This document shows positions 10,691 to 38,838 of a stretch of 64,000 nucleotides of DNA, in pieces. Within the stretch, counting starts at the first letter, position 1; each line of letters starts with the position of its first letter. The notes under the pieces were generated by a model. It was not told the origin of the DNA and searched no databases. It worked only from the letters and a program-made list of their open reading frames with translations. Origin of the DNA: an uncultured virus (IMG/VR IMGVR_UViG_3300037294_000661) (lineage: Duplodnaviria; Heunggongvirae; Uroviricota; Caudoviricetes); the IMG/VR virus record IMGVR_UViG_3300037294_000661; one strand, written 5' to 3'. The position numbers and the translations under genes were made by a program.

Positions 10691-10695
10691 CTCCG

Positions 10696-20512: not shown

Positions 20513-20726
20513 GGATGAAGGGGCGAACGGCGGGCAGTCGTGGCACATCCGCCTCCAACCCGGGCGTGGCCTTGGATCATTCGATGCGCCCACTCTGCCG
20601 ATGCCACGTAATGCCCGTCGGCGCTGACCGTGAAAGGCATCGCGGAAAGCCGACACCCACCCCAAAACCTGCGCCGAGCTTGGTGCGGCTGAGTGTCCCA
20701 GTGCCGCGACAAATAGCAAAGTTTGA

Positions 20727-20756
20727 CTTGGCTTGTGCCCGCCACAGCGCGTTCAT
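20727..20756 (+). promoter_or_regulatory. Bipartite motif, copy 3
   Basis: CTTGGCTT-gtgcccgcca-CAGCGCGTTCAT, 37 bp before ATG 20793. Confidence 0.7.
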
Positions 20757-20792
20757 GGAGGTCCGCAAACCACTCTCAACAAGGAGATTTCA

Positions 20793-21041
20793 ATGAGCAC
20801 AATTACCAGCCTTCGGGCGCAGGTGACGGACGCCAACCACCGCCCGCGCGGAATGATGAGCATCGAGTTCGATGGCGATGCCCACGGCCCGTATCGAGTT
20901 ACCCACGACGGGCGCACCTATTGGTACACCGGCAAATCGGGCAGCAACCGCGCGACAGGATTGCCCGTGCGCGAAATGGCCACCGAGGACGACTGCCGTC
21001 TGTGGATCACGCTGGGCGGCACCGCCGTGTGGGAGGACTGA
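20793..21041 (+). CDS. Small hypothetical protein
   Basis: AAGGAG RBS; TGATG coupling to the DUF2924 gene. Confidence 0.7.
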   Translation: MSTITSLRAQVTDANHRPRGMMSIEFDGDAHGPYRVTHDGRTYWYTGKSGSNRATGLPVREMATEDDCRLWITLGGTAVWED

Positions 21042-21511
21042 TGCTGCAGCCAAGCCAGCAAACCAGTATCGCCGCACAACTGGCGGCGCTGCCCAATACA
21101 CCGATGAAGGCATTGTGGCTGCTCTGGGACGAGCACTTTCCCCGACGGCCCACCCACACCAATCGCAGATACATCGAATCCCGCATCGCCTACCGGATAC
21201 AAGAACTGGCCTACGGGGAGTTGCCCGCAGGTGTCCGCCGCCATCTGGCCGATTGCGGTGCCAAACATTCGAAGATCGCCATCGCCAAGAAAGGCGGGCG
21301 TGGCACGGAATTCCATCTAATGCCCGGCACCGCGTTGGTTCGTGAATGGGATGAGCGCGAATACCGCGTCACCGTCACGCCTGCCGGTTTGTACGAACTG
21401 GATGGGCAACTGTTCAAAAGCCTGTCGGCGGCAGCGCGCCACATCACCGGTACGCAGTGGTCAGGGCCGAAGTTCTTCGGGCTCATCGATAGCAAAGGAG
21501 TGCCGCGATGA
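21041..21511 (+). CDS. DUF2924-family protein
   Basis: PGTALVREW...FKSLSAAARHITGTQWSGPKFFGL. Confidence 0.85.
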   Translation: MLQPSQQTSIAAQLAALPNTPMKALWLLWDEHFPRRPTHTNRRYIESRIAYRIQELAYGELPAGVRRHLADCGAKHSKIAIAKKGGRGTEFHLMPGTALVREWDEREYRVTVTPAGLYELDGQLFKSLSAAARHITGTQWSGPKFFGLIDSKGVPR

Positions 21512-22848: not shown

Positions 22849-23315
22849 CACGTATTCGAACAACCGGCGCGCCGGTCTCAATGCGGCGGCGGGAGGATGG
22901 CATAGTAAAACTGTCGACCTTCATCCCGCTGAAAATCAGGAAACGTGGCGTCAGCAAGATGATCGTGCGGCCCGAAGTTGCGGCGTCCGGTGATGGTGCT
23001 GTGCTGGGTCACGGGAACAGCGGCGGCAGTCAGCACGACAACCCGTTGCAGGTGGCGTTGTCGCGGGCATTTCACTGGCAACGGTTGATCGATGACGGAC
23101 GGGTCGGCAGCGGCAGCGAGATCGCCAAGTTGGAAGGCTTGCACCACTCGACGGTTAACGAACTGCTGCGCCTGACGCTGCTGGAGCCCGCCACCATCCA
23201 GAGCATTCTGGCCGGTAAGCAGCCCCGCTGCATGAGTCTGCTGTGGTTCCAACGCAATCCGCTGCCGCTGGATTGGGCCCTGCAACGCCAAGTGGTCGAG
23301 GGGTTCGATGCCTGA
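22845..23315 (+). CDS. Recombinase-associated hypothetical protein
   Basis: ALSRAFHWQRLID...EIAKLEG...LLRLTLLEP...WFQRNPLP. Confidence 0.8.
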   Translation: MTRIRTTGAPVSMRRREDGIVKLSTFIPLKIRKRGVSKMIVRPEVAASGDGAVLGHGNSGGSQHDNPLQVALSRAFHWQRLIDDGRVGSGSEIAKLEGLHHSTVNELLRLTLLEPATIQSILAGKQPRCMSLLWFQRNPLPLDWALQRQVVEGFDA

Positions 23316-23848: not shown

Positions 23849-24178
23849 ATGCCCACCATCCTCGACGTCGAATCCACTCTGACCGACCGCTACCAGACCA
23901 CCGTACCGGAGACTGTGCGTCGCGCCCTTCGGCTCGGCAAGCGCGACAAGATCCACTACACCATCCGCCCCACCGGCGAGGTGGTGCTAACCCGCGTAGA
24001 GGCCTCCGAGGCAGACGACCCGGTACTCGGACAGTTCCTTGGGTTCCTGGTGCGCGACATTGCCAACCACCCCGAGCGCCTACAGGCTGTAGATGCTGGC
24101 TTCGTCCAACGCCTGCAGTCGCTGACCGCTGGCGTCGAAGTCGATCTCAATGCCGTCCTATCGGCAGACGATGAATGA
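23849..24178 (+). CDS. prlF: PrlF/SohA antitoxin
   Basis: ESTLTDRYQTTVPETVRRAL (AbrB fold), DDPVLGQFL.FL..DI..HP, GVEVDL. Confidence 0.9.
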   Translation: MPTILDVESTLTDRYQTTVPETVRRALRLGKRDKIHYTIRPTGEVVLTRVEASEADDPVLGQFLGFLVRDIANHPERLQAVDAGFVQRLQSLTAGVEVDLNAVLSADDE

Positions 24179-24681
24179 GTGCAAGCAAACCCGCGCCTCT
24201 GGTCATCCACGGCTGGACGGTTTTTGCGCACCCGCTGTTCCTCGCACAGATTGAAGCGCTGGCACGGCAGGTCGAGACCTTTAAACAGAAAGACCCCGTC
24301 GGGTACGTGAAGAAAAACGCCAGCAAGCGACTGGCGGCTATCACGAAGCTGGCCTTCGATGTCGTCCCGCAAGATCCGGCACGACCGGAATACCGGCAAG
24401 GCGGCACGCTCGGCGACGATCACAAGCACTGGTTCCGGGCGAAGTTCTTCCAGCAGTACCGACTGTTCTTCCGCTACCACGCGCCCAGCAAAGTGATCGT
24501 GTTCGCGTGGGTCAATGATGAGGACACAAAGCGCGCCTACGAGAGCAGCGACGACGCCTACCGGGTATTCCGCAAGATGCTGGAAAGCGGCCATCCTCCA
24601 GACGACTGGAACCAGTTGTTGGCCGAGGCTCGGGCCGAGGGCCAGAGACTGCAGCAGTTCGCTGCAGACCTCACACCGTAG
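24175..24681 (+). CDS. yhaV: YhaV toxin (RNase)
   Basis: GWTVFAHPLF, WFRAKFFQQYRLFFRY, AWVNDEDTKRAY and GHPPDDW motifs. Confidence 0.9.
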   Translation: MSASKPAPLVIHGWTVFAHPLFLAQIEALARQVETFKQKDPVGYVKKNASKRLAAITKLAFDVVPQDPARPEYRQGGTLGDDHKHWFRAKFFQQYRLFFRYHAPSKVIVFAWVNDEDTKRAYESSDDAYRVFRKMLESGHPPDDWNQLLAEARAEGQRLQQFAADLTP

Positions 24682-24738
24682 GGCTTGGCTTCTATGGCGA
24701 ACAGCGTTGTCATGGGGTCATCAGTCTTGGAGAAGAAG

Positions 24739-25320
24739 ATGCACTACCCTGTGATGACCGAAAGGCAGGTCGCCGTCCGATGGAAGGTCAGCCTAAAAAC
24801 CTTGCGGCGCTGGCGCCTCGATAACGAAGGGCCGATCTGGCACAAACTGTTTCACCACGTTCGCTACCACGGGGCGGAAATATTCGAGTTTGAACGCCAG
24901 AGCGCGCAGCACTGGATGGCGATCCTCGGTGACGGTGAGCGTATCCCGCGCGCCGTCACGCACCCGCCGAAGAATATTGACGATCCTCAGTTGCCGGATG
25001 CCGCCGGGCCCGAGGTGCAGTACGTCAGCGCGAAGGAGGTCGTCGAGGCAACGGGACTTCCCGCGAGCCTGTTCAACGACCGAGTTGAACGGGAGCGTAA
25101 GCGCATTCCGCATCTACTGCTGGTCAGGAATCTACGCTTTTCGCTGGAGGCCATCCTGCAGTGGGAGCTGGAAAACAGCGTTCGGGGCGATGTACAGGAA
25201 CAGGCATTTCAACCCGCTGCATCCGAACAGGACTGTCAACCGGCAGTCCCGGTTCGCGTGCCGCGCTGGCACGAGCTAGTGAGCGAGCAAGACAGAGAAC
25301 AGTGCGATTCCGCGCCTTAG
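24739..25320 (+). CDS. Protein with two tandem AlpA/Xis-like HTH domains
   Basis: VAVRWKVSLKTLRRWR..GPIW.K, then a second unit YVSAKEVVEATGLP...RIPH...LRFSL..ILQWE. Confidence 0.7.
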   Translation: MHYPVMTERQVAVRWKVSLKTLRRWRLDNEGPIWHKLFHHVRYHGAEIFEFERQSAQHWMAILGDGERIPRAVTHPPKNIDDPQLPDAAGPEVQYVSAKEVVEATGLPASLFNDRVERERKRIPHLLLVRNLRFSLEAILQWELENSVRGDVQEQAFQPAASEQDCQPAVPVRVPRWHELVSEQDREQCDSAP

Positions 25321-25381
25321 CCTAAACAAATGTCCCCGCTTTTGGCCGAAAGTCCACCATTTCGGCCATTTGTCCACGAGA

Positions 25382-25411
25382 GGTGGAACACGGAACTGAA
25401 CCCGCGTCCGC
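25382..25411. repeat. 30-bp direct repeat, copy 2
   Basis: GGTGGAACACGGAACTGAACCCGCGTCCGC. Confidence 0.8.
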
Positions 25412-25742
25412 ATCCCGACAAGGATAGCAATGTTTTGGCCTTGAGGGCGTGAATTCGAGTATTTGGCCGAATTCAATCCGTCCACGCCTAGCGTGTGAGC
25501 GCGCACCGTCCCGCGAAACTTGGGCTGCCACGACCCAATCGTCTAGCGCAAATTCGATCCCGGTTTCACTCCCAAACTCCCGTTCGCCTCATCTGCCCCC
25601 TCCTGGTCGAGCCGCCTGAGAGCGCAGGCTCACCCTAGGAGCCACCAGTTCTGCACAATCGCTCAAAATCCAGCCAATTGTCATTGCTGCTTTGAAAATT
25701 TTGCACTATGCTGTCGTTGTTTGCCCTAAATTGGCCATCACC

Positions 25743-25997
25743 ATGTCTAAAAGTACCAGCGAGGGCGAGATCCTCACCATCAAGCAGGTCGCCGACTACC
25801 TGAAGGTCACGGAGCGGACGATCTACAGGTTGGCGGCTGCCAAGCAGATCCCTGCCTTCAAGGTGGGCGGGAGCTGGCGGTTCTCGCGGGCGGACATCGA
25901 TAGCTGGATCAAGCAGCAGTCGATGGAGGGACTCGAAACCAGCCGTGAACAAGATGGTGACGCCACTGGCCAACCGAACAATGGGGAGCGAAAGTAA
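25743..25997 (+). CDS. Excisionase-like HTH_17 regulator heading the defence operon
   Basis: ILTIKQVADYLKVTERTIYRL....IPAFKVGGSWRF; TAATG coupling to the ATPase gene. Confidence 0.9.
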   Translation: MSKSTSEGEILTIKQVADYLKVTERTIYRLAAAKQIPAFKVGGSWRFSRADIDSWIKQQSMEGLETSREQDGDATGQPNNGERK

Positions 25998-28741
25998 TGC
26001 TTGGACTGACTCTACGAGAAGAATTTCGAGGCAAGCGCCTCAAAGGGACAGCCATTGAGCTCTCCAACGACACGAACACCGGTGCGACCCAAATCGCTGC
26101 GAAGGAGTTTCTGGAGATCACCTATCCCACGCACGATCTGCTGAAGGGGATCGAGGCGGTCGGCCCGAACCAAGGCCGTCCGGTGGTGGTGATCGGTGAG
26201 CGCGGCCTCGGCAAGTCTCACTTGATGGCCGCGCTGTACCACGCGGTGAACGATGCGACCTCGACTGGTGCGTGGCTGAATTCGTGGGCAACCACCTTGA
26301 GTGATCCACAGATCGGCAAGATCGGGCTGCGCAGCGGAATGACGGTGATCGGCGAGAGCCTGCACCGGCAGCGCTACAAGTTTCTATGGGACTTGCTGTT
26401 CGAGCGCCATCCCCACGGCACCTACATCAAGGGCAAGTGGGAGGGCATGGGCGCGGCCAAGACTGACATCCCGTCTGACAAGCTGATCCTCGAGCTGTTG
26501 CAGCACACGCCGACGATGCTGCTGCTGGACGAATTCCAGACTTGGTACGACGGCCTGACCAACACCAAGCAGTACCCCTGGAAGAACTGGGCGTTCAACT
26601 TTATCCAGATCCTTTCCGAGATCGCCAAGGAGCATCCGGAGTTGCTGGTGCTTGTGATCTCGGTTCGCAACGGTGGCAGCGACGCCTATCAGCAAGTGCA
26701 TCGCGTCAACCCGGTCGCTATCGACTTCATGGCGGGCGGCAATCCCGAGCGGGTACAGCAGGATCGCCGCCGGATGCTGTTGCACCGCTTGTTCACCAAC
26801 CGGCTGCAGATCACCAAGCCCCAGATCGCGTCGCTCATCGAAACGCACGTGACCGAGAGCTTGCGCTTGATGGAGGTGCCCACCGCTGAGCATGAGCGCA
26901 AACGCAAGGAATTCCTGGTCTCGTGGCCGTTTGCCCCGCACCTGTTGCGCCTACTTGAAGAGCAGGTTCTGATCGCCACCGACGCGCAGGAAACGCGCGA
27001 CATGATTCGCATCCTGGCCAACCTTTACAAGAGCCAAGGCGAAGTAGCACCGGTGCTGACAGCGGCAGATTTCCGGCTGGATGACGATGCGTCGGGTATT
27101 GGTGCGCTGCTGGATTCGGTGTCAAACGAGCATCACCGCACGCTGCGCGCGAAGGCTCAGCAGAACATCATCTCGGTCACCGAAGCCGTGACCAACCACG
27201 CCAGTCTTGCGCCGCATCTGCAGGAGATCGTTGGCGCTTTGTGGCTGCGATCCATTGCTGTCGGCAATTTGGCTGGTGCCGAACCGGCAACGCTGCAGGT
27301 CGACATCACGCGCAACAAGGCCGTCGATGACAACGCGTTCCAAGTGGAGCTGGCGACCATCGTCGAGAACAGTTTCAACATCCACCAGGACGGCCCCCGG
27401 CTGGTTTTCAAGGAGGAAGAGAACCCTCGCGCCAAGCTGATGGCTTGTGCTCGCAATGACAAGCTGTTCACCGACGGGTCCGACCAAGCCCAGCTTGCCA
27501 AGCAGGTTCGCTACGTGATCGGTGGCACCGACGAGGTCGCCAAGACCTGCCGTGTGATCGCGCTGCCCAAGGCTTGGCAGACCGAGCCTTGGGTCAGTCT
27601 GGATGAAGCCGAGCAGCCGGAGCGTTGGGACGACCGCCTGCCCATCCTGGTGCTGCCAGAGGAACCGGACAACATCGACCAGCGTCTTGGCCGCTGGATC
27701 AAAGATCACCTGCAGAAGCGCCGCAACACCATCCGCTTCCTGCTGCCGCGATCCGGCTCCACCAATGCTTTCCAAGATCGCGACCTGCTGATCCTCGCGC
27801 GTGCCGAGATGAAGGCGCAGGAATGGAGCGGCCAGAACCCCGAGTACAAGAAGCTGCACACCGAGTATCAGGGTGCCCTGCGCGACATCTTGAAAAAGCG
27901 CTTCGACCGTTTTGCGGTGCTGCATCGCTGGAATTTCGCCGACCCGAACCAGTGCGTATTCAGCGTCGAGAGCCTGAAGAAGCAAGGTGCCCAGATCCCC
28001 GAAGGCATCGAGGAGGCGTTGACCAACGACCTGTTCGTGCCGGAGGACTTTGAAGACCTCGTGTTCGAAGCCGCCGCCGACAACTCGGCGGTTGGCAAGC
28101 TGCTGCGCGAGCTGCAAGAGCCTCGCCCAGCTGGTCAAGACTGCATTCCTTGGCTCGGCGAAACCGCAATGAAGGAACGCATCCTTCGCCTGTGCGCACG
28201 GGGCAAGATCGCCATCAATCTGCGCGGCCTTGAATACCTGCAGACCCAGCCCGGCGAGGATGAAGACTCAGCCTGGAAACGCCTGCGTCCCAAGCTGTCC
28301 TACACCGGCCGCCAGCTCGATGAAGTGTTCCTGATGGAACCCTCGGCGGTGCCGACTACGGGTGGCACCACGCCCCCTGCGCCTCAGCCGCCGACTGGCG
28401 GTGGCGAAGGCGGTGGGCTGTGGGGTGGCGGCACAACGCCACCGCCGCCCCCACCGGGCGGTGACACGACACCGGGGGGTGGCATGCCGCCGCCGGGTGG
28501 CGGAATCTTCGGCGGTGGCTCCAGCACTGGCGGCAAGCCCCGCATCCCACTGAGTAACCCGGCCACCTCCCCCTTGAATCTGATCGGCAAGCTCGAAGGC
28601 TGGGGCATTGGCCCGGCCACGCCAGTCGCCGAAGTCTCGATCAAGGTATCAGCGGCAACCGGAGCGCAACTCAAGGAACTGCTCAAGAAGCTGCCCGACG
28701 GTATGACCTTCGAGCTCAGTCTCGAAAAGGACGACAACTAA
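25997..28741 (+). CDS. DUF499-like / BrxC-related AAA+ ATPase
   Basis: FLEITYPT, Walker A GERGLGKSH, Walker B LLLDE, SWPFAP and QETRDMIRILA. Pro/Gly linker near the C-terminus. Confidence 0.8.
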   Translation: MLGLTLREEFRGKRLKGTAIELSNDTNTGATQIAAKEFLEITYPTHDLLKGIEAVGPNQGRPVVVIGERGLGKSHLMAALYHAVNDATSTGAWLNSWATTLSDPQIGKIGLRSGMTVIGESLHRQRYKFLWDLLFERHPHGTYIKGKWEGMGAAKTDIPSDKLILELLQHTPTMLLLDEFQTWYDGLTNTKQYPWKNWAFNFIQILSEIAKEHPELLVLVISVRNGGSDAYQQVHRVNPVAIDFMAGGNPERVQQDRRRMLLHRLFTNRLQITKPQIASLIETHVTESLRLMEVPTAEHERKRKEFLVSWPFAPHLLRLLEEQVLIATDAQETRDMIRILANLYKSQGEVAPVLTAADFRLDDDASGIGALLDSVSNEHHRTLRAKAQQNIISVTEAVTNHASLAPHLQEIVGALWLRSIAVGNLAGAEPATLQVDITRNKAVDDNAFQVELATIVENSFNIHQDGPRLVFKEEENPRAKLMACARNDKLFTDGSDQAQLAKQVRYVIGGTDEVAKTCRVIALPKAWQTEPWVSLDEAEQPERWDDRLPILVLPEEPDNIDQRLGRWIKDHLQKRRNTIRFLLPRSGSTNAFQDRDLLILARAEMKAQEWSGQNPEYKKLHTEYQGALRDILKKRFDRFAVLHRWNFADPNQCVFSVESLKKQGAQIPEGIEEALTNDLFVPEDFEDLVFEAAADNSAVGKLLRELQEPRPAGQDCIPWLGETAMKERILRLCARGKIAINLRGLEYLQTQPGEDEDSAWKRLRPKLSYTGRQLDEVFLMEPSAVPTTGGTTPPAPQPPTGGGEGGGLWGGGTTPPPPPPGGDTTPGGGMPPPGGGIFGGGSSTGGKPRIPLSNPATSPLNLIGKLEGWGIGPATPVAEVSIKVSAATGAQLKELLKKLPDGMTFELSLEKDDN

Positions 28742-29742
28742 TGCCGCTCGACGCCGGGGTACTGAACAGCCTGACCAAAGGCTCTGCCGAGGACGCGTGG
28801 CGCGTCATCATCAACAACGCCGTTGAGATTGCGTCGAAGCCGCTGGCTGCAGGCAACGCGTCCAGCGAGGTGATCAAGCGCGACCGCGAAATCGGCACAC
28901 TTGATCACTTCCTGTCCTCCACCGGCTGGGACTTGTGGCAAGCCTTCGGCGACACCGTCGAACGCACCTCGGATCGACTGGCGCGCTGGTGGAACGAGCC
29001 CTACAGCGCCAAAGCGGTGCTGGTACTGGATGGCCTGTCCCTGCGTGAACTGCCTTGGCTGCTACAAGGTGCCAAGGAGCGCGGTTTCACCCTACACGAG
29101 GTGTCTGCCAATGCTTCTGAACTGCCGGGGGAGACCAATGAATTCGCGCGAGCCTTGGGCTTCGGGAGCCGCAGCCAGCTTCAGAACAACGGCGGAGGCC
29201 TTGCGCACAAGCTGCAACCGGCGCACACCGAGTGTGTCGATATGCCTTGGAAGGATTGTGCTGGCCTGATCAACGGCACGCCGAACTGGGTGTTCTGGCA
29301 CCAATGGCCCGACAGCAAACTTCACGACGGCGCTGGCGCAGGCCAAGGACTCGACACGCTGACCCGCGACGTTGCCGATCAACTCAGCAGCGATGAATTC
29401 TGGGCATTCGTCGAGCAATTGGCCACCGGACGGCGGCTGGTCATCACCTCCGACCACGGTTACGCCGCCACGGGCTACTTCCCCGACGCCGATGGCGAGG
29501 TGGGCCAGTTCCTCAAGAAAACGTTCGCCAGCGGTCGCAGCGCCAAGGGCACCGGTCTCTCTGCAAAAGACTGCGGCCCCTTCGTGCCACCGGTGGCACT
29601 GCAGATCAATAGCCCGCACGGCGCTCACCTTCTGGCCGTCGGCCGCTGGAAGTGGAAAAGCCAGGGCGGCTACCCGACGTTGACTCACGGCGGCCTCTCA
29701 TTGCTTGAGGTGCTGTCGCCCTTCGTCGAACTCACAAAATAA
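28741..29742 (+). CDS. PglZ-like alkaline-phosphatase-fold protein
   Basis: VLDGLS, ITSDHGY and THGGLSLLEVLSP are PglZ core motifs. Confidence 0.85.
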   Translation: MPLDAGVLNSLTKGSAEDAWRVIINNAVEIASKPLAAGNASSEVIKRDREIGTLDHFLSSTGWDLWQAFGDTVERTSDRLARWWNEPYSAKAVLVLDGLSLRELPWLLQGAKERGFTLHEVSANASELPGETNEFARALGFGSRSQLQNNGGGLAHKLQPAHTECVDMPWKDCAGLINGTPNWVFWHQWPDSKLHDGAGAGQGLDTLTRDVADQLSSDEFWAFVEQLATGRRLVITSDHGYAATGYFPDADGEVGQFLKKTFASGRSAKGTGLSAKDCGPFVPPVALQINSPHGAHLLAVGRWKWKSQGGYPTLTHGGLSLLEVLSPFVELTK

Positions 29743-29754
29743 GGAACTTGCTGT

Positions 29755-32700
29755 ATGGCAACCAAAAAAGAACAACTAGCGCACGAAATTGCTCGCGTAG
29801 TGAGCGCCGGAAAACCAATTTCCGTAGAAACGGTTGACTTTAATGATCCGGATCGACCAAAGACCTGCTTGGAAGTAGATTTCCCCCTGCTTCCAATCAA
29901 CGAAATCGCAAAGATCGAAAGCTCGTCGGGAGCTGGTCGAAAGCCTGTTTATACAATGAGCAAATGGTGGGCCCGTCGCCCATCCAGTGTTTTTCGGTCA
30001 CTACTTATTGCAGCCGCAACTAAGGCGCCAGAGGACAAAGCTCAATCGGCAAGACTCGTGTGGGATAGTTATTACAACAACCACCAGCAGAAGGGAAACT
30101 TCTCCAATCTGAACGTTGCTGACATCTTTATGGGTGGCGGTACAACGTTGGTTGAAGGGGCAAGACTTGGCTTCAACATGGTCGGCAATGACTTGAACCC
30201 AGTGGCATGGTTCGTTGTAAAAAACGAGGTTGCCTCAGTCGATTCTGAGGAAGTCCGAGCGCTACTCGATGATATTGAACGAGAAGTGAAGCCGCAGATT
30301 GCGCCATTTATCGCTTGTGACGGCCCTGGCGGTGAGAAAGGCAAATGGACTCATACTCCGACAAACAGAGTAATGCCGTCAGATTTCGATCCACTTAGTC
30401 TGAATCCAAATCAACGATGTGAGTACCACTACGACGGACCCGAAATAATTTACACCTTTTGGTCAAAGCATGGTCCCTGCCAAGTGACCAGCTGTGGCCA
30501 TCGAACGCCGATTATGCAAAGTCCGGTCATAGCGGTGAAAACCTTAACAATCAAACACTGGGAGCACGAGTGCAGCAAATGCGGGAGTGAATTTCACATT
30601 GAAGATGGATCTGCACGCATGGCCCCCGACGTTCCGCTATTCGTGGCTCCCAATGAGTACCCATATTCGGTGATTGATCCCAAAAAGGGAATCATTTGCC
30701 CAAGCTGCGGACACTCGTCAGTTATCAAACTGGACAAGGGCAAAAGTAAAAAAATTGAACTATCTCTTCTGATTCATCCCGAGTGGATGGCTGGGAACTC
30801 CAAAACTGGGGTGAACGGGGAACCATTGGGTGGTACTGCACAAGACTCGCCAAAGTATACGAAGCTCTGGAACACCGAGCGAGCAAAACATATACGCTTG
30901 CTTGAAGTTCGAGGAAGCTTGCCTGATTCAGTCACCTGCCCTGAAACGGGTGTGACCTTCAACTCAAAGATCGGCACCGTACCAAAACGATCAAACTATG
31001 CCTGCGGATCCTGCGGCACTGTTCAAGATGTACTTACAACGGTCAAGGCATCGGGTAAAACGGGACCAGTGGCTGGATATGCAGTACAGGGTTACGCACC
31101 CAAATACGATGCGAGCGGAGCTCCTTACAGGGGACGGTTTTTTGCTCCTTTCACTGAAAAACAAGCAACTCAATTCAACAAAGCCTGTGATGAGTGGTCG
31201 GAGCGCAAGGAAGGGGATCTAGCGGATTATTGGCCGCGACAAGGCATCCCTTTCGGGTTTATGACGGGTATGGCGAATGGAGATATTCGCGAGGGTCATG
31301 GATTCACGCATTGGTGGACGATGTTTAACCCTAGACAAATGTTGATCCTCGCTCAGCTTTTGCGTGCGATCGTTGTGGCTGGTGGTGATCGTCATAGTTG
31401 GCAGGTGCGCGAATATGTGCTCGGAGCTTTTCATCGATATCTTCAGCACCAAAATATGTTCTGCTTCTGGGATATCCAGCAAGATTGTGTAGCGCCAAGC
31501 CTGAGTAATGCAAACTATCATCCAAAATCATCTTTGGTTGAAAATAGCGTTTTTGCGAGCCTCGGTCGAGGGAACTGGCGATCTTCAGTCGGGAACTTAT
31601 TCGAGACCATTGAATGGCTGAAAAATCCATGGGACTTGGTCAGCAATCAACGTCTAATTGCATTAGAGCCAAAGCTTGCCGGGAAAGTATCAGGAAAATC
31701 GGAAAAAGCTTTTCTTGGGGATCGAATAAAGAAGACGCCACGTATTGAATGTGGCTCATCGACTGAGCTCAATCACATTGAAACCAACTCTATAGACTTG
31801 GTAATCACCGACCCTCCCTTTGGCGGGCTACTGCACTACTCAGAGCTTGCGGATTTCTTTTATGTTTGGTTGAGGCTTGCACTCAAGGGCAAGTATCCAA
31901 ATATTTTTTCTGCAGAGTTAACACCAAAGGCACTGGAGGTTGTGGCCAACAAGGCCCGCGAGCCAGAAGATGCAGACGGTTTCTATCAACGATTACTGAC
32001 GCAATGCTGGCGCGAGGCACATCGAATCCTAAAGCCCGGTGGAATACTCGCATTTACATTCCACCACAGCGAAGATGATCCGTGGGTTGCTGTACTGGAA
32101 TCGTTGTTTGATGCGGGTTATTACCTTGAGGCGACGTATCCGATCCGCTCGGATGAGTCCAAGGGCGAAGGTGAGTTTGGATCAAAGAGCATTGAGTACG
32201 ACATCATTCACGTCTGTCGAAAACGCACTGAAGAACCCAAGCCGGTGAGCTGGGGCCGGATGCGCCGTGAGGTGTTGGCTGATGTACGGCAATTGCAGGC
32301 AATGCTGGAGAACCACGCCAAGGAAGGCTTGCCTGCCGCTGATATTCAGGTAATCCGGCGCGGCAAGGCGCTGGAGTACTTTTCACGCCACTATGGCAAG
32401 GTGTACGTGGATGAGGGTCGTACGATATCCGTCAAGGATGCATTGGTTGGTATTAATCAACTGATCGATGAAGACGGTAAAGGCGGCCTTGAGCCACCCC
32501 CTGTAAATGCAGAGCCGATCTCCCGGCAGTTCCTGCGAGTTTTTGACGGAAAGACTGAACTGCCACGTGATCAGCTTCAGAAGTTTCTGCGCGGAACTGG
32601 CATGGCCCCAGACGAGTTTGAACAACGCGGATGGTGCTCAGAAAAAAGCAAAGTCTTCACACGAGTAAATCCATTGGACTTTGCTCGCGAGTGGTCGGGC

Positions 32701-32979
32701 AAGCACAAGCGCCGCTTGACCTCGGATTTGGATCAGGCGCTGGTGCTGATCGGTGCGTGCTTTGATGGCAGCGGCATCAACGCGTCCGACACGCTGAAGA
32801 ACGACAACTTCAAGCCCCACGTGGCGCTCAAGTCCTTGCTCGAATGGCTGCACAAGAAAAGTCCTGATCAGGCCAGTCGGAATGCGGCCTCGCGCGCGGT
32901 CTCGATCTACAACGGCTGGGCTGCGACGCAAGCGGTCAAGCCAACGCAGGGCTCGCTTTTTGAGGAGTACGAGCTATGA
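29755..32979 (+). CDS. DUF1156-like amino-DNA methyltransferase with Zn-ribbon inserts
   Basis: KWWARRP, DIFMGGGT (motif I), ITDPPF (motif IV) and several CxxC pairs. Confidence 0.9.
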   Translation: MATKKEQLAHEIARVVSAGKPISVETVDFNDPDRPKTCLEVDFPLLPINEIAKIESSSGAGRKPVYTMSKWWARRPSSVFRSLLIAAATKAPEDKAQSARLVWDSYYNNHQQKGNFSNLNVADIFMGGGTTLVEGARLGFNMVGNDLNPVAWFVVKNEVASVDSEEVRALLDDIEREVKPQIAPFIACDGPGGEKGKWTHTPTNRVMPSDFDPLSLNPNQRCEYHYDGPEIIYTFWSKHGPCQVTSCGHRTPIMQSPVIAVKTLTIKHWEHECSKCGSEFHIEDGSARMAPDVPLFVAPNEYPYSVIDPKKGIICPSCGHSSVIKLDKGKSKKIELSLLIHPEWMAGNSKTGVNGEPLGGTAQDSPKYTKLWNTERAKHIRLLEVRGSLPDSVTCPETGVTFNSKIGTVPKRSNYACGSCGTVQDVLTTVKASGKTGPVAGYAVQGYAPKYDASGAPYRGRFFAPFTEKQATQFNKACDEWSERKEGDLADYWPRQGIPFGFMTGMANGDIREGHGFTHWWTMFNPRQMLILAQLLRAIVVAGGDRHSWQVREYVLGAFHRYLQHQNMFCFWDIQQDCVAPSLSNANYHPKSSLVENSVFASLGRGNWRSSVGNLFETIEWLKNPWDLVSNQRLIALEPKLAGKVSGKSEKAFLGDRIKKTPRIECGSSTELNHIETNSIDLVITDPPFGGLLHYSELADFFYVWLRLALKGKYPNIFSAELTPKALEVVANKAREPEDADGFYQRLLTQCWREAHRILKPGGILAFTFHHSEDDPWVAVLESLFDAGYYLEATYPIRSDESKGEGEFGSKSIEYDIIHVCRKRTEEPKPVSWGRMRREVLADVRQLQAMLENHAKEGLPAADIQVIRRGKALEYFSRHYGKVYVDEGRTISVKDALVGINQLIDEDGKGGLEPPPVNAEPISRQFLRVFDGKTELPRDQLQKFLRGTGMAPDEFEQRGWCSEKSKVFTRVNPLDFAREWSGKHKRRLTSDLDQALVLIGACFDGSGINASDTLKNDNFKPHVALKSLLEWLHKKSPDQASRNAASRAVSIYNGWAATQAVKPTQGSLFEEYEL

Positions 32980-33476
32980 AGCAACTGCTCGACACGGTTT
33001 GGCAGCGGCGCGGCACCAGCTGGGTATGGGACGAAGAGGCTCGCAATCAGGTGTGCGCGGCCAGCGAGGTGTGGAGCCTGCGACAGTTCTTGCAGGCGGC
33101 GGGCCATTGGCCCGACGACTTGCCCAGCAATGGCAACAACACACTCGTTGTCGCAGGGCTGGAAGGCGGCCTCGATCTGCTGACGCCCGAGGACGCCGAG
33201 ACTTGGCTAAGCGATGGGGTCAAGGATGCGATCTTGTCGTTTCAGTCCTACTACGAGGGTGAAGCGTCCTTGATTTTTTGGCTGCCATCAGGTCTCGGAA
33301 GGATCAAGTTTCATCCCGCCACCGACTCGGTTGAGTGGCGCTGCGCAGCACCGCACAGCGACCGCCTGCTCGCGTTCGGCCGCATTCTGTGGGGTGAAGC
33401 CAACGAGTATCCGCAGGAGATCCTGCTCCGTGAGGGCAGCAAGCCTGCTGGCTTGTTTCATTTGCGGATCACCTGA
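32976..33476 (+). CDS. Hypothetical protein in the defence operon (possibly a degenerate P-loop/BrxB-like fold)
   Basis: ATGA overlap with the methylase gene; LVVAGLE resembles a degenerate Walker B (speculative). Confidence 0.75.
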   Translation: MKQLLDTVWQRRGTSWVWDEEARNQVCAASEVWSLRQFLQAAGHWPDDLPSNGNNTLVVAGLEGGLDLLTPEDAETWLSDGVKDAILSFQSYYEGEASLIFWLPSGLGRIKFHPATDSVEWRCAAPHSDRLLAFGRILWGEANEYPQEILLREGSKPAGLFHLRIT

Positions 33477-33485
33477 GGACAGCGC

Positions 33486-36260
33486 GTGGAAGTAAAGACT
33501 CAGCTCCAACCCGGCGAACGGATCACCCATCACGAATTCGGCCAAGGCGTAGTTCTTGATCCGGCGCGCGACGGCTACCTGCGCGCGTTCTTCGGCGTGG
33601 GCGAGCGCCGGGTGCCGGTTGGCTCGGTTCACCGCCAGCTCTCCCGCACCGAACGCATCTTGCGAGCAGTGGACGGCAACGCCGACCGCGCACGCAAGGC
33701 GTGGCTGTCCTATGAGGCGCACGCGCTACCAGTGATGGAAAGCGCGTCGGCGCTGACCTCGGCCAAGATCGACCTGCTGCCTCACCAAGTGGTGCTGACG
33801 CACCGCATCGCCACGGCATCGCCACGGCGCTATCTCATCGCGGACGAGGTCGGGCTGGGCAAGACCATCGAGACGGCACTCATCCTGCGCGAGCTGGCCA
33901 GCAGGGGTGAATTGACCCGGGCGCTGATGGTGGTTCCAGCGGGTCTGGTGAACAACTGGCACCGCGAGCTGAACGAAGTGTTCAACCTCGACTTCGAGGT
34001 GTTCGGCTCCGAGGGCGACATCACCGACCGAAAAACCAACGCCTTCGCCAAGCACGACCGGCTGATCGCCAGCATCGACACACTAAAGCGCCCGGCACGC
34101 ATCAAGCGCCTGCTGGACGCGCCGCGCTGGGATTTGGTGGTGTTCGACGAAGCGCATCACCTCACCGCTTACCGCAATGGCGGCAAGGTGAGAAAGACAG
34201 AGAACTACAAGCTGGCCGAGGCATTGAAGGATCACTCGCGTGACCTGATGCTGCTCTCTGCCACGCCGCACCAGGGCAATCACTTCCAGTTCTGGATGCT
34301 GGCGCAACTGCTGAACCCGACGCTATTCAGCAGCCCCGAGGAAATGCTGGAACACCGGCACCGCCTGAACACGGTGATGTTCCGTCGTACGAAAGCAGAC
34401 GCCTGTCAGCCGGATGGCTCGCCGCTGTTTGCACGGCGCTGGGTGCATACCGAGTCCTTCCTGATGGGCCCGGAGGAGCGCCTCTTCTACGAGAAGCTGC
34501 GCGAGTACCTGGAGGATGGTTTCGACCTTGCGCGTCGCCAGGGCGGCCAGGGGCGAGCGCTCGGCTTCTTGATGGCGATCTTCCAGAAGATTGCTGCATC
34601 GAGTTTCGCTGCTGTGCGGCGAACCATGAAACGCCGTCTGCTGATGCTGACGCTGCACGAGGCATTCCTGCGGGATAAAGACCTCGACATTGAAGGCCGC
34701 GAGCGGCTGACCGAGGAGGCCCGAGAACTGATCCACGAGGAGTTCAAACTTGCACGCGACAGCATCGGGCGCAGTGAGGTGGATCGTGTGCTGGCCGATC
34801 TCAAGTATCGACTGGTCAAGAAGCTAGACGAGGAAGCGCTGGAGCTGGCCTCCGACCCTTACGGCAGCGAATATGGAGCCGCCCACGCGGAAGAAGCCGC
34901 GTCGGCTGTCGTGGAACTGCATCTGCCCGAAGAACGACTGCGCATCGGAGATCTGCTCAAGGTCTTTCCACAGCAGCGTGAGACCAAAGCGCAGAAGCTC
35001 CTGGATGGCCTTGGCATTCTGTGGCGGCAGAACCCGAACGAGAAGATCGTCGTGTTTGCCACCTACCTCGGCACGGTGGACTTGATTGCGAGGGAGATCG
35101 AGCAGACCTTCCCCGGCCAGGGCGTGGCGGTGCTGCGTGGTGGTGATCACGGTGCCAAGCTTGCCGCAGAGCGCCGCTTCCGTCAGAAGGACGGCCCGCG
35201 CGTGTTGGTCTGTACAGCGGCTGGCCGTGAAGGCATCAACCTGCAGTTCGCGCGCATATTGTTCAATTTTGATTTGCCGTGGAACCCGATGGATATCGAG
35301 CAGCGCATCGGGCGCATCCATCGATACGGACAAAACCACACAGCGCAGGTCTACAACCTTGTGCTGTCGGACACCATCGAGGGCCGCATCTTCCTGATGC
35401 TGGACGAAAAGCTGATCGAGATTGCCAAGACAGTCGGCAAGGTCGATGACCAAGGCAACGTCGCCGAAGACCTGCGTGCACAGATTCTTGGACAACTCTC
35501 CGAGCGACTGAACTACGACCGCCTCTACCAAGAAGCGCTGTCAGACCCCGAGCTCAAGCGGACAAAGGTGGAACTGGAAGCTGCCCTGTCCAATTCGCGC
35601 GAAGCACGGCAGGTCGTATTCGACCTTTTCCAAGACCTCAATGGCTTTAGCCTCGATGACTACAAACCCTTTTCCGACGTGTCCTCGGGGCTGGATCGCT
35701 TGGTGCGGTTCATGTCCGCAGCGGTGGCAGATCGGCAGCAGCGGCTCGTCAAGGTGGACGACGAGACCTATGACCTTGTGACGGCCGATGGTGCGCGCAA
35801 GGCCCGGTTTACTTTGAATCGAGAGACGGCCACGAGTAACGACAACGTGGAGCTGATGGGGCTGGATCACCCGCTGGTGCAGGAAGAGCTTGGTCGCTGG
35901 CGTATCGTACCGCCGGAAGATCTCGGAATTGCCGTTGCAGCTGATGTCGACGACCCAGTACTGCTGTCGTTTTGGATGGTCGAGGCCTCCGGCAAAAATG
36001 GAGAGCGCCGCGTGGTGGTTCAGCCGATTGCGGTCAAGCAGGACGGCACGCGTGTGCCTGCGGTGGAGCGGCAATGTGAACGCTACCTGCAGGCCCCGAC
36101 AGCCACGCCCAAATTCTCAGCGGATCAGCGGCTCGATCTATTTTCACACGCTGTCGAGCCTACGCTGCAGCGTGAGCTCAAGCACAAAGGCGCGGCAAAT
36201 GGCGACGGCAGCTACTCGGCCGAGTTGATCGGCTACGTCGAAATCGTGGCGAAGGGGTAA
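33486..36260 (+). CDS. SNF2-family helicase/translocase
   Basis: LIADEVGLGKT, DEAHH, LSATPH, EGINLQ and QRIGRIHRYGQ motifs. Confidence 0.95.
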   Translation: MEVKTQLQPGERITHHEFGQGVVLDPARDGYLRAFFGVGERRVPVGSVHRQLSRTERILRAVDGNADRARKAWLSYEAHALPVMESASALTSAKIDLLPHQVVLTHRIATASPRRYLIADEVGLGKTIETALILRELASRGELTRALMVVPAGLVNNWHRELNEVFNLDFEVFGSEGDITDRKTNAFAKHDRLIASIDTLKRPARIKRLLDAPRWDLVVFDEAHHLTAYRNGGKVRKTENYKLAEALKDHSRDLMLLSATPHQGNHFQFWMLAQLLNPTLFSSPEEMLEHRHRLNTVMFRRTKADACQPDGSPLFARRWVHTESFLMGPEERLFYEKLREYLEDGFDLARRQGGQGRALGFLMAIFQKIAASSFAAVRRTMKRRLLMLTLHEAFLRDKDLDIEGRERLTEEARELIHEEFKLARDSIGRSEVDRVLADLKYRLVKKLDEEALELASDPYGSEYGAAHAEEAASAVVELHLPEERLRIGDLLKVFPQQRETKAQKLLDGLGILWRQNPNEKIVVFATYLGTVDLIAREIEQTFPGQGVAVLRGGDHGAKLAAERRFRQKDGPRVLVCTAAGREGINLQFARILFNFDLPWNPMDIEQRIGRIHRYGQNHTAQVYNLVLSDTIEGRIFLMLDEKLIEIAKTVGKVDDQGNVAEDLRAQILGQLSERLNYDRLYQEALSDPELKRTKVELEAALSNSREARQVVFDLFQDLNGFSLDDYKPFSDVSSGLDRLVRFMSAAVADRQQRLVKVDDETYDLVTADGARKARFTLNRETATSNDNVELMGLDHPLVQEELGRWRIVPPEDLGIAVAADVDDPVLLSFWMVEASGKNGERRVVVQPIAVKQDGTRVPAVERQCERYLQAPTATPKFSADQRLDLFSHAVEPTLQRELKHKGAANGDGSYSAELIGYVEIVAKG

Positions 36261-36262
36261 AT

Positions 36263-37129
36263 GTGGCGACAACAATAATTCAGAGCTTTCTGCAATTGAA
36301 AGCGAATCTTGAAATCACCGGACTGCAACAGCAAATGGTTTCCACGCGCCAGCAGAATGTCCGTGATGCCGTTACTACTGATCTGACAGTGTTGGATACG
36401 TTCCTGACGGGGTCGTACCGGCGCAGCACGATGATTGCTCCGCTCAAAGACGCAGATATCGATGTGTTAGTCGTCCTTGATGCGTCCTATTTCAAACAGG
36501 ATGGGCAAGCATGGTTGCTCGACAAGGTAAAAACCACGCTCAAGAAGACGTATCCGTCAACACCGAAAATAAGCCGAAACGGGCAAGCAGTCACCATCAC
36601 GTTTACCGACTTCACTGTTGACGTGGTTCCAGCATTCAATCGACAGGGTGGTGGCTATCTGATTGCGGACTCCGTCAATGCGCGCTGGATTGCCACTGAT
36701 CCCAAAAAGCACGTTGACATATGGTCGGCTGCTAACGCTACGCATCAGGGTAACTTGGTTCCCTTGATAAAAATGCTCAAGGGATGGAACAGACAGAACG
36801 GTGCCTTGCTGCGGTCATTCCATCTCGAAGCCGTGATCCTTGGAATCCTGAACAATGTGACGATTAATGATTTCTCATCCGGAGCTAGATTCGTCTTTGA
36901 CAAGGCGCGACAAACGGTAAGAAGCGCGACATATGATCCTTCCGGCTACGGTGGAAACTTGGCGGACTATCTCAACTCACAACAGAAGATCAATGACGTG
37001 GTCAGTAGGCTGGAGTCGGCATACAACCGAGCCGTTGAGGCTGAAAGTCTCGACAAGCTGGGCAAGACTTCGCAGGCTGTTGATAAATGGCGTTTGATCT
37101 TTGGAGACTATTTTCCTGCTTATGGCTAA
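36263..37129 (+). CDS. CD-NTase (SMODS/cGAS-DncV-like cyclase)
   Basis: FLTGSYRRSTMI..LKDADIDV, VDVVPAF, W..TDP, LIKMLKGWN, SFHLE and W..IFG.YFP. Confidence 0.9.
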   Translation: MATTIIQSFLQLKANLEITGLQQQMVSTRQQNVRDAVTTDLTVLDTFLTGSYRRSTMIAPLKDADIDVLVVLDASYFKQDGQAWLLDKVKTTLKKTYPSTPKISRNGQAVTITFTDFTVDVVPAFNRQGGGYLIADSVNARWIATDPKKHVDIWSAANATHQGNLVPLIKMLKGWNRQNGALLRSFHLEAVILGILNNVTINDFSSGARFVFDKARQTVRSATYDPSGYGGNLADYLNSQQKINDVVSRLESAYNRAVEAESLDKLGKTSQAVDKWRLIFGDYFPAYG

Positions 37130-37904
37130 TCAACCGTCCAAAATCGACCCGATCCGAAAGCGCTACTACCGACCGCTCGAAATAGCTGAGTCATCTTCAG
37201 ATTGGCTTTTCTTGCTGGTGGCTGCGCTTTCCATTTTGGCCTTGGCAGTAGAGCGTACAACGTACCCAAGACTTTACGATCTTGTACAAGGGGCCTTCGT
37301 CGTCGGCGTATTGGTTCTATTCTTTCTTGGGCTTGGTATCAGGCTGTACTGGACGCCGCGCGCTGACGACAAACGCCGGCAGGATTTGCTCTCGAATTCC
37401 TTTGCTGTTGCTCTCACGCACGAACAGACGTCCGGGTACTACAACAACGACCAGACCAATCCCCTGAGACGGCTTTGCGCGTCATTACTTGAGAACAGTT
37501 TTTTCAGTAAGAACGTGACCTTGAAAATGGCGCACGGCGAGCGCATCAGAGTGGCCGTGTACGCACTGATTTGGATTGTCGCGCTATTGAATCGCGCCAC
37601 TGACCTTGCTCTTGCCGCTGCAATGGCTCAGGCCGTTTTCAGCGAGCAAATTATCTCCAGGTGGGTTCGTTTGGAATGGCTTCGGATGCGGTTTGAACGC
37701 GTCTATGAGCATCTGTATCGGCTTGTCCAAACGACGACAAATTTTAATAAGGAGGAGTTTCGTGTCCGCGTGTTGGAAGCGTTTGGGGAATACGAAACTG
37801 GTAAGGGGTACGGCGGCATCACCCTGTCCGCAAGAATATTTGAACGCCTTAACCCGTCGCTATCATTGGAATGGGCAGAGATTCGGAAATCGCTGAACAT
37901 TTAG
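37122..37904 (+). CDS. Multi-TM CBASS effector (S-4TM-like)
   Basis: Two pairs of hydrophobic segments; overlaps the cyclase stop by 8 bp. Confidence 0.75.
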   Translation: MANQPSKIDPIRKRYYRPLEIAESSSDWLFLLVAALSILALAVERTTYPRLYDLVQGAFVVGVLVLFFLGLGIRLYWTPRADDKRRQDLLSNSFAVALTHEQTSGYYNNDQTNPLRRLCASLLENSFFSKNVTLKMAHGERIRVAVYALIWIVALLNRATDLALAAAMAQAVFSEQIISRWVRLEWLRMRFERVYEHLYRLVQTTTNFNKEEFRVRVLEAFGEYETGKGYGGITLSARIFERLNPSLSLEWAEIRKSLNI

Positions 37905-38365
37905 TCCGATTTCTTGAGCAGATTTATCTCGGCTTCTCGACGTGCCACAAGTCCTGGCAAGACATTCCCCCCACCATAGACCCATCTTCGCAATTCCTGC
38001 GCGGCAGTTGGCCAGTCCCGCTGGTTGATCCGCCGCCGCAGCGTCGAGGTCTGTAAGCGACCTGCGCCAAGGTTGAACGTGAAGTCCACGATGGCCGCAA
38101 GCCGTCCCTCGGATTCGGTGGCCAGCACTGGGCAGTAGCGCAGCGTGGCATTCAGTGCTTTGACGAGGTCTAGCGCCAGATAGGCTTCGGCTTCCTCCAG
38201 CGTGATCGGCAGGTGATCTGGCGCGCAGAGATGACCGTAGCCAATCGTCCAGAATCCTGCCGGACACACGTAGGGGATGGCGGCAATCTCGGTACCGCGT
38301 TTCACCCGTCGCTCGAACCCTTCGAAGCGCTTGGCCAGTTCGATGGCGGCTTTCGGCACCATCAC
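37901..38365 (-). CDS. Phage lysozyme (GH24 endolysin)
   Basis: KRFEG...PYVCPAGFWTIGYGH, DFTFNLG and LPGLVARREAE. Confidence 0.95.
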   Translation of the reverse strand: MMVPKAAIELAKRFEGFERRVKRGTEIAAIPYVCPAGFWTIGYGHLCAPDHLPITLEEAEAYLALDLVKALNATLRYCPVLATESEGRLAAIVDFTFNLGAGRLQTSTLRRRINQRDWPTAAQELRRWVYGGGNVLPGLVARREAEINLLKKSD

Positions 38366-38838
38366 GACCGCACCCGATCAAACACGCGCCCCAAGAACCA
38401 GAAATTCAGTACCCCGGCCCACAAGGCTTGGTCTGCTTCCGTCCACGCGTGCAGGATTGCCACGCCATAACCAGCGCCAGCGGTCACGGCAGCCGCGAAC
38501 CCTGCCGTCTTGGCCGCGCAGTACAGCGCCATGAACCAGTAGGTGATCACGGGCCGAACGCTACTGGAGAGCGCATCGGCCCAACGCACGCCGGTTTTCT
38601 CACCTTGGGTGCGCACCGCCTCGCGCAGTGTTTCGATGGCACCAACATTCCACGCGGCGTCGGCACCTGCGCCGATCTCGTCCATTCGTTGCGCGCCGCG
38701 AATCTTCTCGAATTCCAGCGCCTTGTCCTGCATCGCCAGTTCGTGGCCACGCTCGCCCTTGCGGTCGAGCCACTTGAGGAATTCGGGGGCAAGGCGGAAT
38801 GCGCCGCCCAGCAGGCCACCAAGTAATGTCTCGATCAT
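38362..38838 (-). CDS. Holin-like membrane protein
   Basis: SSVRPVITY...TM segments...FWFLGR; adjacent to the lysozyme gene. Confidence 0.7.
   Translation of the reverse strand: MIETLLGGLLGGAFRLAPEFLKWLDRKGERGHELAMQDKALEFEKIRGAQRMDEIGAGADAAWNVGAIETLREAVRTQGEKTGVRWADALSSSVRPVITYWFMALYCAAKTAGFAAAVTAGAGYGVAILHAWTEADQALWAGVLNFWFLGRVFDRVRS

Follow-up and report, generated by a model that had tools for sequence, protein, structure and literature searches.

Bacteriophage exclusion (BREX)-Related (BR) systems centred on a DUF499 ATPase include a Type-3 set that comprises a DUF499 ATPase, a DUF1156 methylase, a BrxHII-like helicase whose nuclease fusion has been lost, a stand-alone PglZ and an iSTAND protein; according to the main text of its description, the set occurs in 569 taxa and some of its DUF1156 methylases carry two zinc fingers (Rakesh & Krishnan, NAR 2026, PMC12839542). 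The subject of this study is a block of eight genes at positions 25743-37904 (+ strand) of a 64,000-nucleotide (nt) stretch of viral DNA (IMG/VR record IMGVR_UViG_3300037294_000661), hereafter the window, in which such a set is followed at once by a type I cyclic-oligonucleotide-based antiphage signalling system (CBASS). As judged from their sequences, genes 2-6 appear to be a complete Type-3 DUF499-centred BR system, a catalogued family, and genes 7-8 make up a type I CBASS that is intact. The original prediction, made from the letters of the window, had described the core as a BREX/restriction-like system; a view of it as a new hybrid of the two falls away because the five genes agree gene for gene with the published Type-3 BR set. 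What is new is the CBASS appendage and the fidelity of its clade to DUF499 operons, while the core is of a known kind. We consider it probable that the CBASS is a co-transcribed, functionally independent second line of defence lodged behind the BR operon, and its status as an exchangeable lodger is suggested by a survey of related cores, by the other contents of the same slot, by its nucleotide composition and by its loss in one related locus.

Comparison with described systems

The window resembles the published Type-3 BR sets in having all five components as separate genes in one locus, among them a small P-loop-like protein as candidate iSTAND, and a methylase with a Cys-rich insert, and differs from them in a MAD1-like helix-turn-helix (HTH) gene in front and the type I CBASS behind. 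Hma, or Type-1 BR (PADLOC, Payne et al. 2021; Halomonas HmaABC, Liu et al. 2024, PMC11232893), has the same ATPase-methylase-SNF2 triad, and its operons often contain inserted guests from other defence systems (Septu, PARIS, Ppl, GmrSD-like). The CBASS clade of the window also follows HmaC at two metagenome loci (L085 and L083). In contrast to the window, HmaA carries a C-terminal PD-(D/E)XK (NOV_C/DUF3883) nuclease and Hma has no PglZ. The window ATPase matches HmaC only at E 0.0014, and the locus falls outside Hma/Type-1 BR since the PADLOC HmaA profile aligns to its SNF2 protein over positions 71-652 of 1176 only and a PglZ is present.

MANTIS (Gao_RL, Type-2 BR; Shaw et al., bioRxiv 10.64898/2026.09.23.753747) offers the sole mechanistic model at hand for the family: loading of a DUF1156-type methylase depends on an AAA+ ATPase together with a small co-regulator, and DNA that lacks the modification is restricted by a helicase-type effector. 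Its effector is a helicase-nuclease fusion, whereas the window encodes a helicase without a nuclease match and a separate PglZ, and its small subunit belongs to another family than that of the window. Type 3 BREX (BrxF, BrxC, PglXI, BrxHII, PglZ, BrxA) shares the PglXI-like methylase, the BrxHII-like helicase and the PglZ chemistry, but the window lacks BrxA, its PglZ is a bare 333-aa domain and not a long multidomain protein, and its ATPase belongs to the DUF499 clade and not to BrxC. BrxA, BrxL, PglW and nuclease families were unmatched by all eight proteins in scans of Pfam, PADLOC and NCBIfam, in line with the prediction that BrxA and BrxL are missing; this and the short PglZ place the locus outside BREX types 1-6. 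The first gene exceeds the cut-off of NCBIfam antiphage_MADS1, the MAD1 equivalog (83.9 vs 80 bits). The other matches to MADS components (mad2, 1.1e-7, to the methylase core only; mad8, 0.0023) concern generic cores and are not convincing, so that mad1 alone of the mad1-mad8 set was matched well.

Type I CBASS operons are generally autonomous two-gene units. Like those with an S-4TM effector, the module of the window consists of two overlapping genes without Cap2/Cap3, HORMA or TRIP13; unlike them, it lacks its own upstream region, begins with GTG 2 bp behind another system and belongs to a clade found almost nowhere but at the 3' ends of DUF499-type operons. Guests in BREX, BR and Hma operons have already been published, and a CBASS guest was not found in the literature searched: CBASS, SMODS and CD-NTase are not mentioned in the main text of PMC12839542, where the auxiliary effectors are nuclease-type only and whose supplements, outside that scope, may list CD-NTase neighbours, and the accessible text of PMC11232893 names CBASS in general remarks only.

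The core genes

All eight open reading frames (ORFs) were recovered in the ORF call on the window, in one orientation and with junctions of -1, -1, +12, -4, +9, +2 and -8 bp in gene order, so that the tight, co-oriented arrangement of the original prediction (overlaps or gaps of at most ~12 bp) holds. The gene content that it had named (HTH protein, AAA+ ATPase, methylase, SNF2, CD-NTase and multi-transmembrane protein) is backed by family matches in the same three collections. The first gene, which shares 1 bp of its stop with the start of the ATPase gene, matches Pfam HTH_17 (2.1e-19) and PADLOC mad1 (2e-8), and its excisionase/MerR-like product is a probable operon regulator. The ATPase is BrxC/MtsA-like, exceeds the DUF499 cut-off (PF04465, 34.7 vs 23 bits), also matches AAA_16 and contains a Walker A motif (GERGLGKS, residue 67) and a Walker B motif (MLLLDE, residue 174). 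Toward its C-terminus, a Gly/Pro-rich low-complexity linker of ~60 residues (28200-28650, G+C 0.70) precedes a small C-terminal domain.

The methylase exceeds the cut-offs of both PF06634 (DUF1156; 26.4 vs 24 bits) and PF01555 (N6_N4_Mtase; 35.7 vs 26.7 bits) and matches PADLOC HmaB (1.8e-41) and PglXI (7.5e-26). It has a DPPF motif at residue 686 and a Cys-rich insert with CxxC at 273, 315 and 417, and a zinc ribbon was matched weakly. It is the most divergent gene of the core, being 63-74% identical to 62 relatives as compared with 77-98% for the ATPase (70 related loci) and 80-97% for SNF2. Its sequence also forms a patch of low G+C (~0.49 across 29700-32000 vs 0.61), and in most loci the methylase lies below its flanks in G+C (mean difference 0.028, 49 loci). 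The low G+C together with the high divergence suggests that the specificity alleles of the methylase are swapped often.

The SNF2 protein matches SNF2-rel_dom (2.5e-21) and Helicase_C (6.4e-18) of Pfam and BrxHI/BrxHII of PADLOC (2.5e-101), carries GLGKT at residue 123 and DEAH at residue 221, and has RapA as its closest solved relative (3e-41). It had been predicted to lack a recognisable nuclease domain, and no nuclease family was matched at E <=0.01 in the scans, which cover sequence families only, so that a cryptic or degenerate nuclease fold may yet lie in the C-terminal 260 residues.

The 333-aa protein itself has no direct Pfam match. At E <=0.001 its relatives number more than 2673, the best 120 of which are 83-93% identical and come from records that bear the names Burkholderia, Methylococcus, Sinorhizobium, Magnetococcales and Caldimonas; among 1.84 billion representatives searched, 410 relatives turned up. 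A profile of 28 close relatives (A2, >=73% identity) found no PglZ among PDB sequences, none of its 28 members matches Pfam PglZ, and an AlphaFold2 model made from these relatives reached a predicted local confidence (pLDDT) of 46.7, too poor for a fold search. A second profile, of 37 full-length, diverse relatives (A4, 29-60% identity), matched the solved PglZ 9nv3_C at E 1.9e-7 (positions 168-329 to residues 573-739) and PorX response regulators at E ~2e-3, with the motifs TSDHGYA and HGGLSLLE superposed in the alignments. D97, S100, D238 and G240 are invariant in A4, and H239 and H316-G318 are invariant or nearly so. Pfam PglZ (PF08665) is matched by 8 of the 37 members and Phosphodiest by 5, and the atlas neighbours of the protein bear PF08665. 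On these matches of the A4 profile, of the relatives and of the atlas neighbours, the 333-aa protein stands as a stand-alone PglZ of the alkaline-phosphatase/NPP superfamily and as a candidate effector, which upholds, at the level of sequence, the PglZ fold claimed for it originally.

The 166-aa gene occupies the same position in 58 loci. Its product has no family match in Pfam, PADLOC or NCBIfam and no Walker A on motif reading, and its model (pLDDT 64, pTM 0.65) gave no Foldseek match at E <=0.001. With few exceptions, the weak structural neighbours of the model (Z <=5.1) have folds of the RecA, KaiC, AAA+ or Rad51-paralogue kinds; the STAND protein Avs4 appears at Z 3.6. The model is consistent with, and no proof of, a P-loop-like alpha/beta fold and a candidate iSTAND/BrxB-like or MtsB-like partner.

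The CBASS module and its junction with the core

The cyclase matches Pfam SMODS (2.2e-27), exceeds the cut-off of NCBIfam CBASS_cyclase_b (208.6 vs 200 bits) and aligns over its full length (residues 1-288) to the 285-position PADLOC profile PDLC00823 (2e-102). Read by eye, it has GS at 49-50, DADID at 63-67 and D120, which we take to be the active-site motif residues (GS, DxD, D) of CD-NTases. The effector has four hydrophobic segments and matches the PADLOC profile PDLC00719 (1.9e-105) from residue 13 of the long ORF; its start is most likely the ATG at 37122, which overlaps the cyclase stop by 8 bp. The full-length profile matches, the presence of the catalytic residues and the low ratio of nonsynonymous to synonymous substitution (dN/dS) of the cyclase, 0.04-0.22 within groups and indicative of purifying selection, argue that the module is intact. 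Cap2/Cap3 and HORMA/TRIP13 accessory families were unmatched by all eight proteins, and the next gene is a convergent lysozyme. The G+C of the CBASS, and of the cyclase by itself, is 0.51 as compared with 0.60-0.62 in both flanks, and we count this difference in favour of a foreign origin.

Direct reading of the sequence confirmed the predicted spacer of 2 bp: the stop codon of SNF2 occupies 36258-36260, and the GTG of the cyclase begins at 36263. A Shine-Dalgarno-like AAGGGG lies inside the final SNF2 codons, ahead of the GTG. In a scan for sigma-70 consensus sites, no promoter was found on the + strand across 25000-38600, and neither a terminator-like nor a promoter-like site was found at the SNF2/cyclase junction; an internal promoter for the cyclase alone, which the original prediction had named as a finding that would separate the modules, was thus not called. 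The layout suggests that the BR core and the CBASS form one transcription unit. Its promoter is presumed to lie in 25321..25742, a placement that we infer, since no sigma-70-like + strand site was called. Three RNA libraries (X1-X3) yielded contigs of ~245 nt inside the cyclase (36495-36941) and one diverged SNF2 piece.

Guests of related cores

The forward survey covered the best 80 of 157 genome stretches that encode a relative of the 333-aa protein, together with 4 IMG/VR viral loci. The order ATPase, PglZ, methylase, small protein, SNF2 is kept in all 80 genome and 4 viral loci wherever the DNA reaches. Among the 44 loci (41 genome, 3 viral) with at least 1500 bp past SNF2, the same CBASS is present in only one, L008, and there as a cut copy. 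This remnant (19233-19733) has a frame of 166 codons whose homology to the window stops at about codon 99; the junction between SNF2 and the cyclase is that of the window and the core is intact, and past residue ~99 follows unrelated DNA with a gene for a FAD-binding monooxygenase on the other strand. The CD-NTase of another locus (L074) is unrelated (28% identity) and lies on the opposite strand. The SNF2 3' end is conserved coding sequence also in the loci without CBASS.

Other defence genes lie both within and behind the core. Of 73 loci, 24 have an insert of more than 300 bp between PglZ and methylase; such inserts separate methylase and small protein in 5 of 63 and small protein and SNF2 in 7 of 57, and none was found between ATPase and PglZ in 76 loci. 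Representatives of these inserts were scanned, and further loci have ORFs of equal lengths. The inner guests are SIR2-HerA (L012), IetAS (L022, and L031 by Pfam only), Ppl (L028), MazF-like (L001), PDC-M24B (L042), HEC-01/PARIS-like (L008, L033) and a Schlafen/HATPase protein (L064). Past SNF2 and on the same strand are PD-T7-3 (L004), PDC-M19B (L011, L025) and GmrSD (L027, L061), and further guests there are DRT8 (L029), LmuA/LmuC-like (L044) and the HipA-like PDC-M66A (L010). Four of these loci (L004, L011, L025, L027) are sibling prophages that share the lysozyme and p189 of the window but have other guests in the same slot. The SNF2 of L004 is the closest to that of the window (synonymous divergence, dS, 0.385), yet its guest is PD-T7-3 and not CBASS. 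In L004 (11873-12102), the lysozyme beside PD-T7-3 matches that of the window only in residues 1-41 and 109-151 and appears disrupted.

Relationship between the two modules

If the CBASS is an independent second line, the following course of events may be pictured. By analogy with MANTIS, the characterised Type-2 relative, the DUF1156 methylase would be brought to short asymmetric sites by the DUF499 ATPase and its small partner, so that the DNA of host and prophage becomes marked. On incoming DNA without such marks, the SNF2 translocase would engage and the stand-alone PglZ would attack; this PglZ may stand in for the nuclease that Types 1 and 2 have joined to their helicase. Upon infection, the CD-NTase would make a cyclic oligonucleotide and the S-4TM effector would then damage the membrane, aborting the infection, as their family membership suggests. 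The CBASS would have been captured in a variable slot between SNF2 and the phage lysis gene, would have lost its own promoter region and would now depend on read-through of the BR operon. Sensing and action are probably separate in the two modules, which would form a first, restriction-like line and a second, abortive one under one control, with no need for cross-talk.

Several results weigh against separate action of the modules or against their joint transcription. In the reverse survey, which covered the best 80 of 201 metagenome stretches encoding a relative of the cyclase, 8 stretches have a cyclase at least 80% identical, and the distinct lineages at this level number nine (window, L008, L081/L082, L083, L084, L085, L086, L089, L090). 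Eight of the nine stand directly behind a DUF499-type operon, six after a Type-3 BR SNF2 and two after a canonical HmaC, and at least three different junctions occur among these eight. By comparison, a Type-3 BR or Hma gene lies upstream in none of the 46 loci that have more than 1000 bp upstream, out of 72 with a cyclase 52-70% identical. Cyclase dS is saturated between the three groups, which implies that the association of CBASS and DUF499 operons is old or arose repeatedly. No RNA contig of the three libraries bridges 36260/36263, so that co-transcription is a point that we infer; the promoter scan sees sigma-70-type sites only. An experimental test of any Type-3 BR system was not found in the literature searched.

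As read from the reverse survey, the CBASS clade appears to have a marked, old preference for DUF499-type operons. The lineages are related, and their counts are therefore not independent trials; in the cyclase tree, the groups have no resolved order. The mutually identical L081 and L082 have the 2-bp junction of the window, L082 with only 37 bp upstream. In L086, L089 and L090, the cyclase follows a Type-3 BR SNF2 after a spacer of 13-18 nt with a GGAGG-like site; in L085 it follows canonical HmaB and HmaC (3.6e-244; 1565 bits) after an 8-bp gap, and in L083 an ORF 84% identical to the tail of the L085 HmaC. The copies behind SNF2 start with GTG or TTG. L084, where the cyclase is 82% identical, free-standing and placed after a DUF4062 gene, and L098/L099, where it is 70% identical, lie outside BR operons and have an ATG start and a non-coding stretch of their own upstream, which points to own control in such relatives. 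L084 (4838-7306) also encodes a second, different CD-NTase (PDLC00769, 2.9e-104) directly behind the 4TM gene. No relative of the cyclase was found in IMG/VR viral contigs, the best plasmid relative is 61% identical, and phage records gave one partial 30% match only. A transfer of the CBASS as a cassette, which a cyclase dS below the SNF2 dS between the window and L081 had suggested, was rejected as too strong because the SNF2 gene itself is mosaic (78-99% identity in 150-nt windows).

The two surveys thus give different answers to the question, raised by the original prediction, of whether core and CBASS co-occur: the core mostly occurs without CBASS, and the CBASS clade mostly occurs behind DUF499-type operons. 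The suggestion that the core is backed up by the CBASS remains plausible as layered defence, given that this clade is found almost only behind such operons. The companion suggestion that the core signals to the cyclic-nucleotide module gained no support, as both CBASS proteins align along their whole length to free-standing profiles and have no added domain.

Such signalling is the essence of the strongest competing explanation, a true hybrid in which this CBASS lineage is a dedicated second stage of DUF499-type systems and the BR complex on unmodified DNA activates the cyclase, or PglZ hydrolyses the cyclic signal and so sets a threshold for suicide. That eight of nine lineages, through at least three junctions, adjoin the 3' end of a Type-3 BR or Hma operon, as opposed to none of the distant cyclases, speaks for it, as do the purifying selection on the cyclase while attached and the tight coupling with GTG or TTG starts; in addition, the PglZ domain of PorX is reported to cleave cyclic and linear oligonucleotides (main text of PMC12839542). 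We nevertheless regard a true hybrid as unlikely. Forty-three of the 44 Type-3 BR loci do without this CBASS, L008 retained its core after losing it, unrelated systems occupy the same slot, and neither CBASS protein has a domain beyond those of its free-standing relatives. Furthermore, Hma has neither PglZ nor the 166-aa protein, so that only ATPase, methylase or helicase could serve as a partner common to both kinds of operon. One phage hotspot may also account for part of the pattern, as a lysozyme homologue adjoins the 4TM gene in the window and L083 and its remnant does so in L090. A more specific form, which we hold to be doubtful and likewise improbable, is that a minimal CBASS lineage gave up its autonomy and became an abortive second stage, expressed from the host operon only and gated in its firing by the BR machinery through a stalled ATPase/methylase/helicase complex or the PglZ phosphodiesterase.

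The probability is low that the modules are mere neighbours, with the CBASS transcribed alone from a promoter hidden in the SNF2 3' end and the spacing an accident of insertion. The distinct G+C of the CBASS, the general autonomy of type I CBASS and the restriction of the promoter scan to the sigma-70 consensus are what one would expect from such neighbours, but no promoter-like site was called on the + strand, the spacer is 2 bp, the ribosome-binding-like sequence lies inside the SNF2 coding sequence ahead of a GTG start, the junction of the window is kept in L008, L081 and L082, and the SNF2 3' end is conserved as coding sequence where no CBASS follows. We give very little credence to phage-serving cargo, in which the block mainly excludes rival phages and the pairing of CBASS with lysozyme has a function of its own, such as timed help in lysis: the overlapping 4TM and lysozyme stops, the lysozyme homologue directly past the 4TM gene in L083 with its remnant in L090 and the core on four IMG/VR viral contigs would fit it, but lysozyme homologues also follow CBASS-free Type-3 BR operons, with p189 and other guests (L004, L011, L025, L027, L161, L164), and L081, L085, L086 and L089 carry the CBASS without lysozyme.

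Type-3 BR systems have only been catalogued, and the copy in the window, being compact, intact and carried by a prophage, lends itself to cloning. The occurrence of the same core with CBASS, PD-T7-3, GmrSD, DRT8 or PDC-M19B in one slot of sibling phages amounts to a natural experiment on layered immunity and raises the question of whether restriction-like and abortive lines under one promoter are additive, synergistic or wired. The near-exclusive home of the CBASS clade behind two DUF499-type operons, which we did not find mentioned in the literature searched, would be the reason to seek cross-talk; a BR-gated CBASS, if true, would for the first time show a methylation-based discriminator wired to cyclic-oligonucleotide signalling.

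Gene coordinates and prophage context

Table 1 Features of the defence block and its borders in the window
Feature	Coordinates	Strand	Remarks
Non-coding, ~420 bp, 5' side of operon	25321..25742	.	Only sizeable gap; presumed promoter/operator region
HTH_17 DNA-binding protein, MAD1-like	25743..25997	+	Longer TTG form from 25692
DUF499 AAA+ ATPase, 914 aa	25997..28741	+	Pfam DUF499, AAA_16
Putative stand-alone PglZ, 333 aa	28741..29742	+	Profile of relatives vs solved PglZ
DUF1156 N6-adenine DNA methyltransferase, 1074 aa	29755..32979	+	Pfam DUF1156, N6_N4_Mtase
Small protein, 166 aa	32976..33476	+	Without family match; weak P-loop-like structural matches
Swi2/Snf2 helicase, 924 aa	33486..36260	+	SNF2-rel_dom, Helicase_C
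CD-NTase, 288 aa	36263..37129	+	GTG start; SMODS, PADLOC, NCBIfam
S-4TM CBASS effector	37122..37904	+	ORF open from 37101; PADLOC 4TM profile
Phage lysozyme (endolysin)	37901..38365	-	Convergent; right edge of cargo slot

Phage genes flank the block on both sides, which supports the earlier view of it as prophage cargo. To its left are DUF2924, serine integrase and small recombinase genes (20723-23315), an intact PrlF/YhaV toxin-antitoxin pair (23849-24681; 2.1e-45 and 1e-62) between this integrase module and the operon, and a gene for an HTH protein (24685-25320). To its right, and convergent with it, lie the lysozyme (Pfam Phage_lysozyme, 2e-31; phrog_7 endolysin) and then tail, head, portal and terminase genes up to 59258. 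The stops of the 4TM and lysozyme genes overlap by 4 bp (37901-37904), leaving no room for a terminator, and an equivalent back-to-back layout is found behind the Hma operon of L083 (1908-1911). Among the four viral contigs with the same core, the right side holds the same lysozyme and p189 in two; on the left side, the integrase module is present in one and HTH211 in one.

Elsewhere in the window, we observed a second pair of serine integrase and small recombinase genes with a helicase/primase alongside (5154-7383 and 7777-10284; compare 20723-23315 and 16702-18912), a counterpart of the set adjacent to the defence operon, and two elements may have integrated in tandem. The G+C is low, 0.50-0.55, over 10000-14000. 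At the far end of the prophage, two adjacent genes encode ParB-domain DNA methyltransferases (60996-63679; phrog_498, 1.6e-166 and 1.9e-113), which may be self-protection methylases of the phage.

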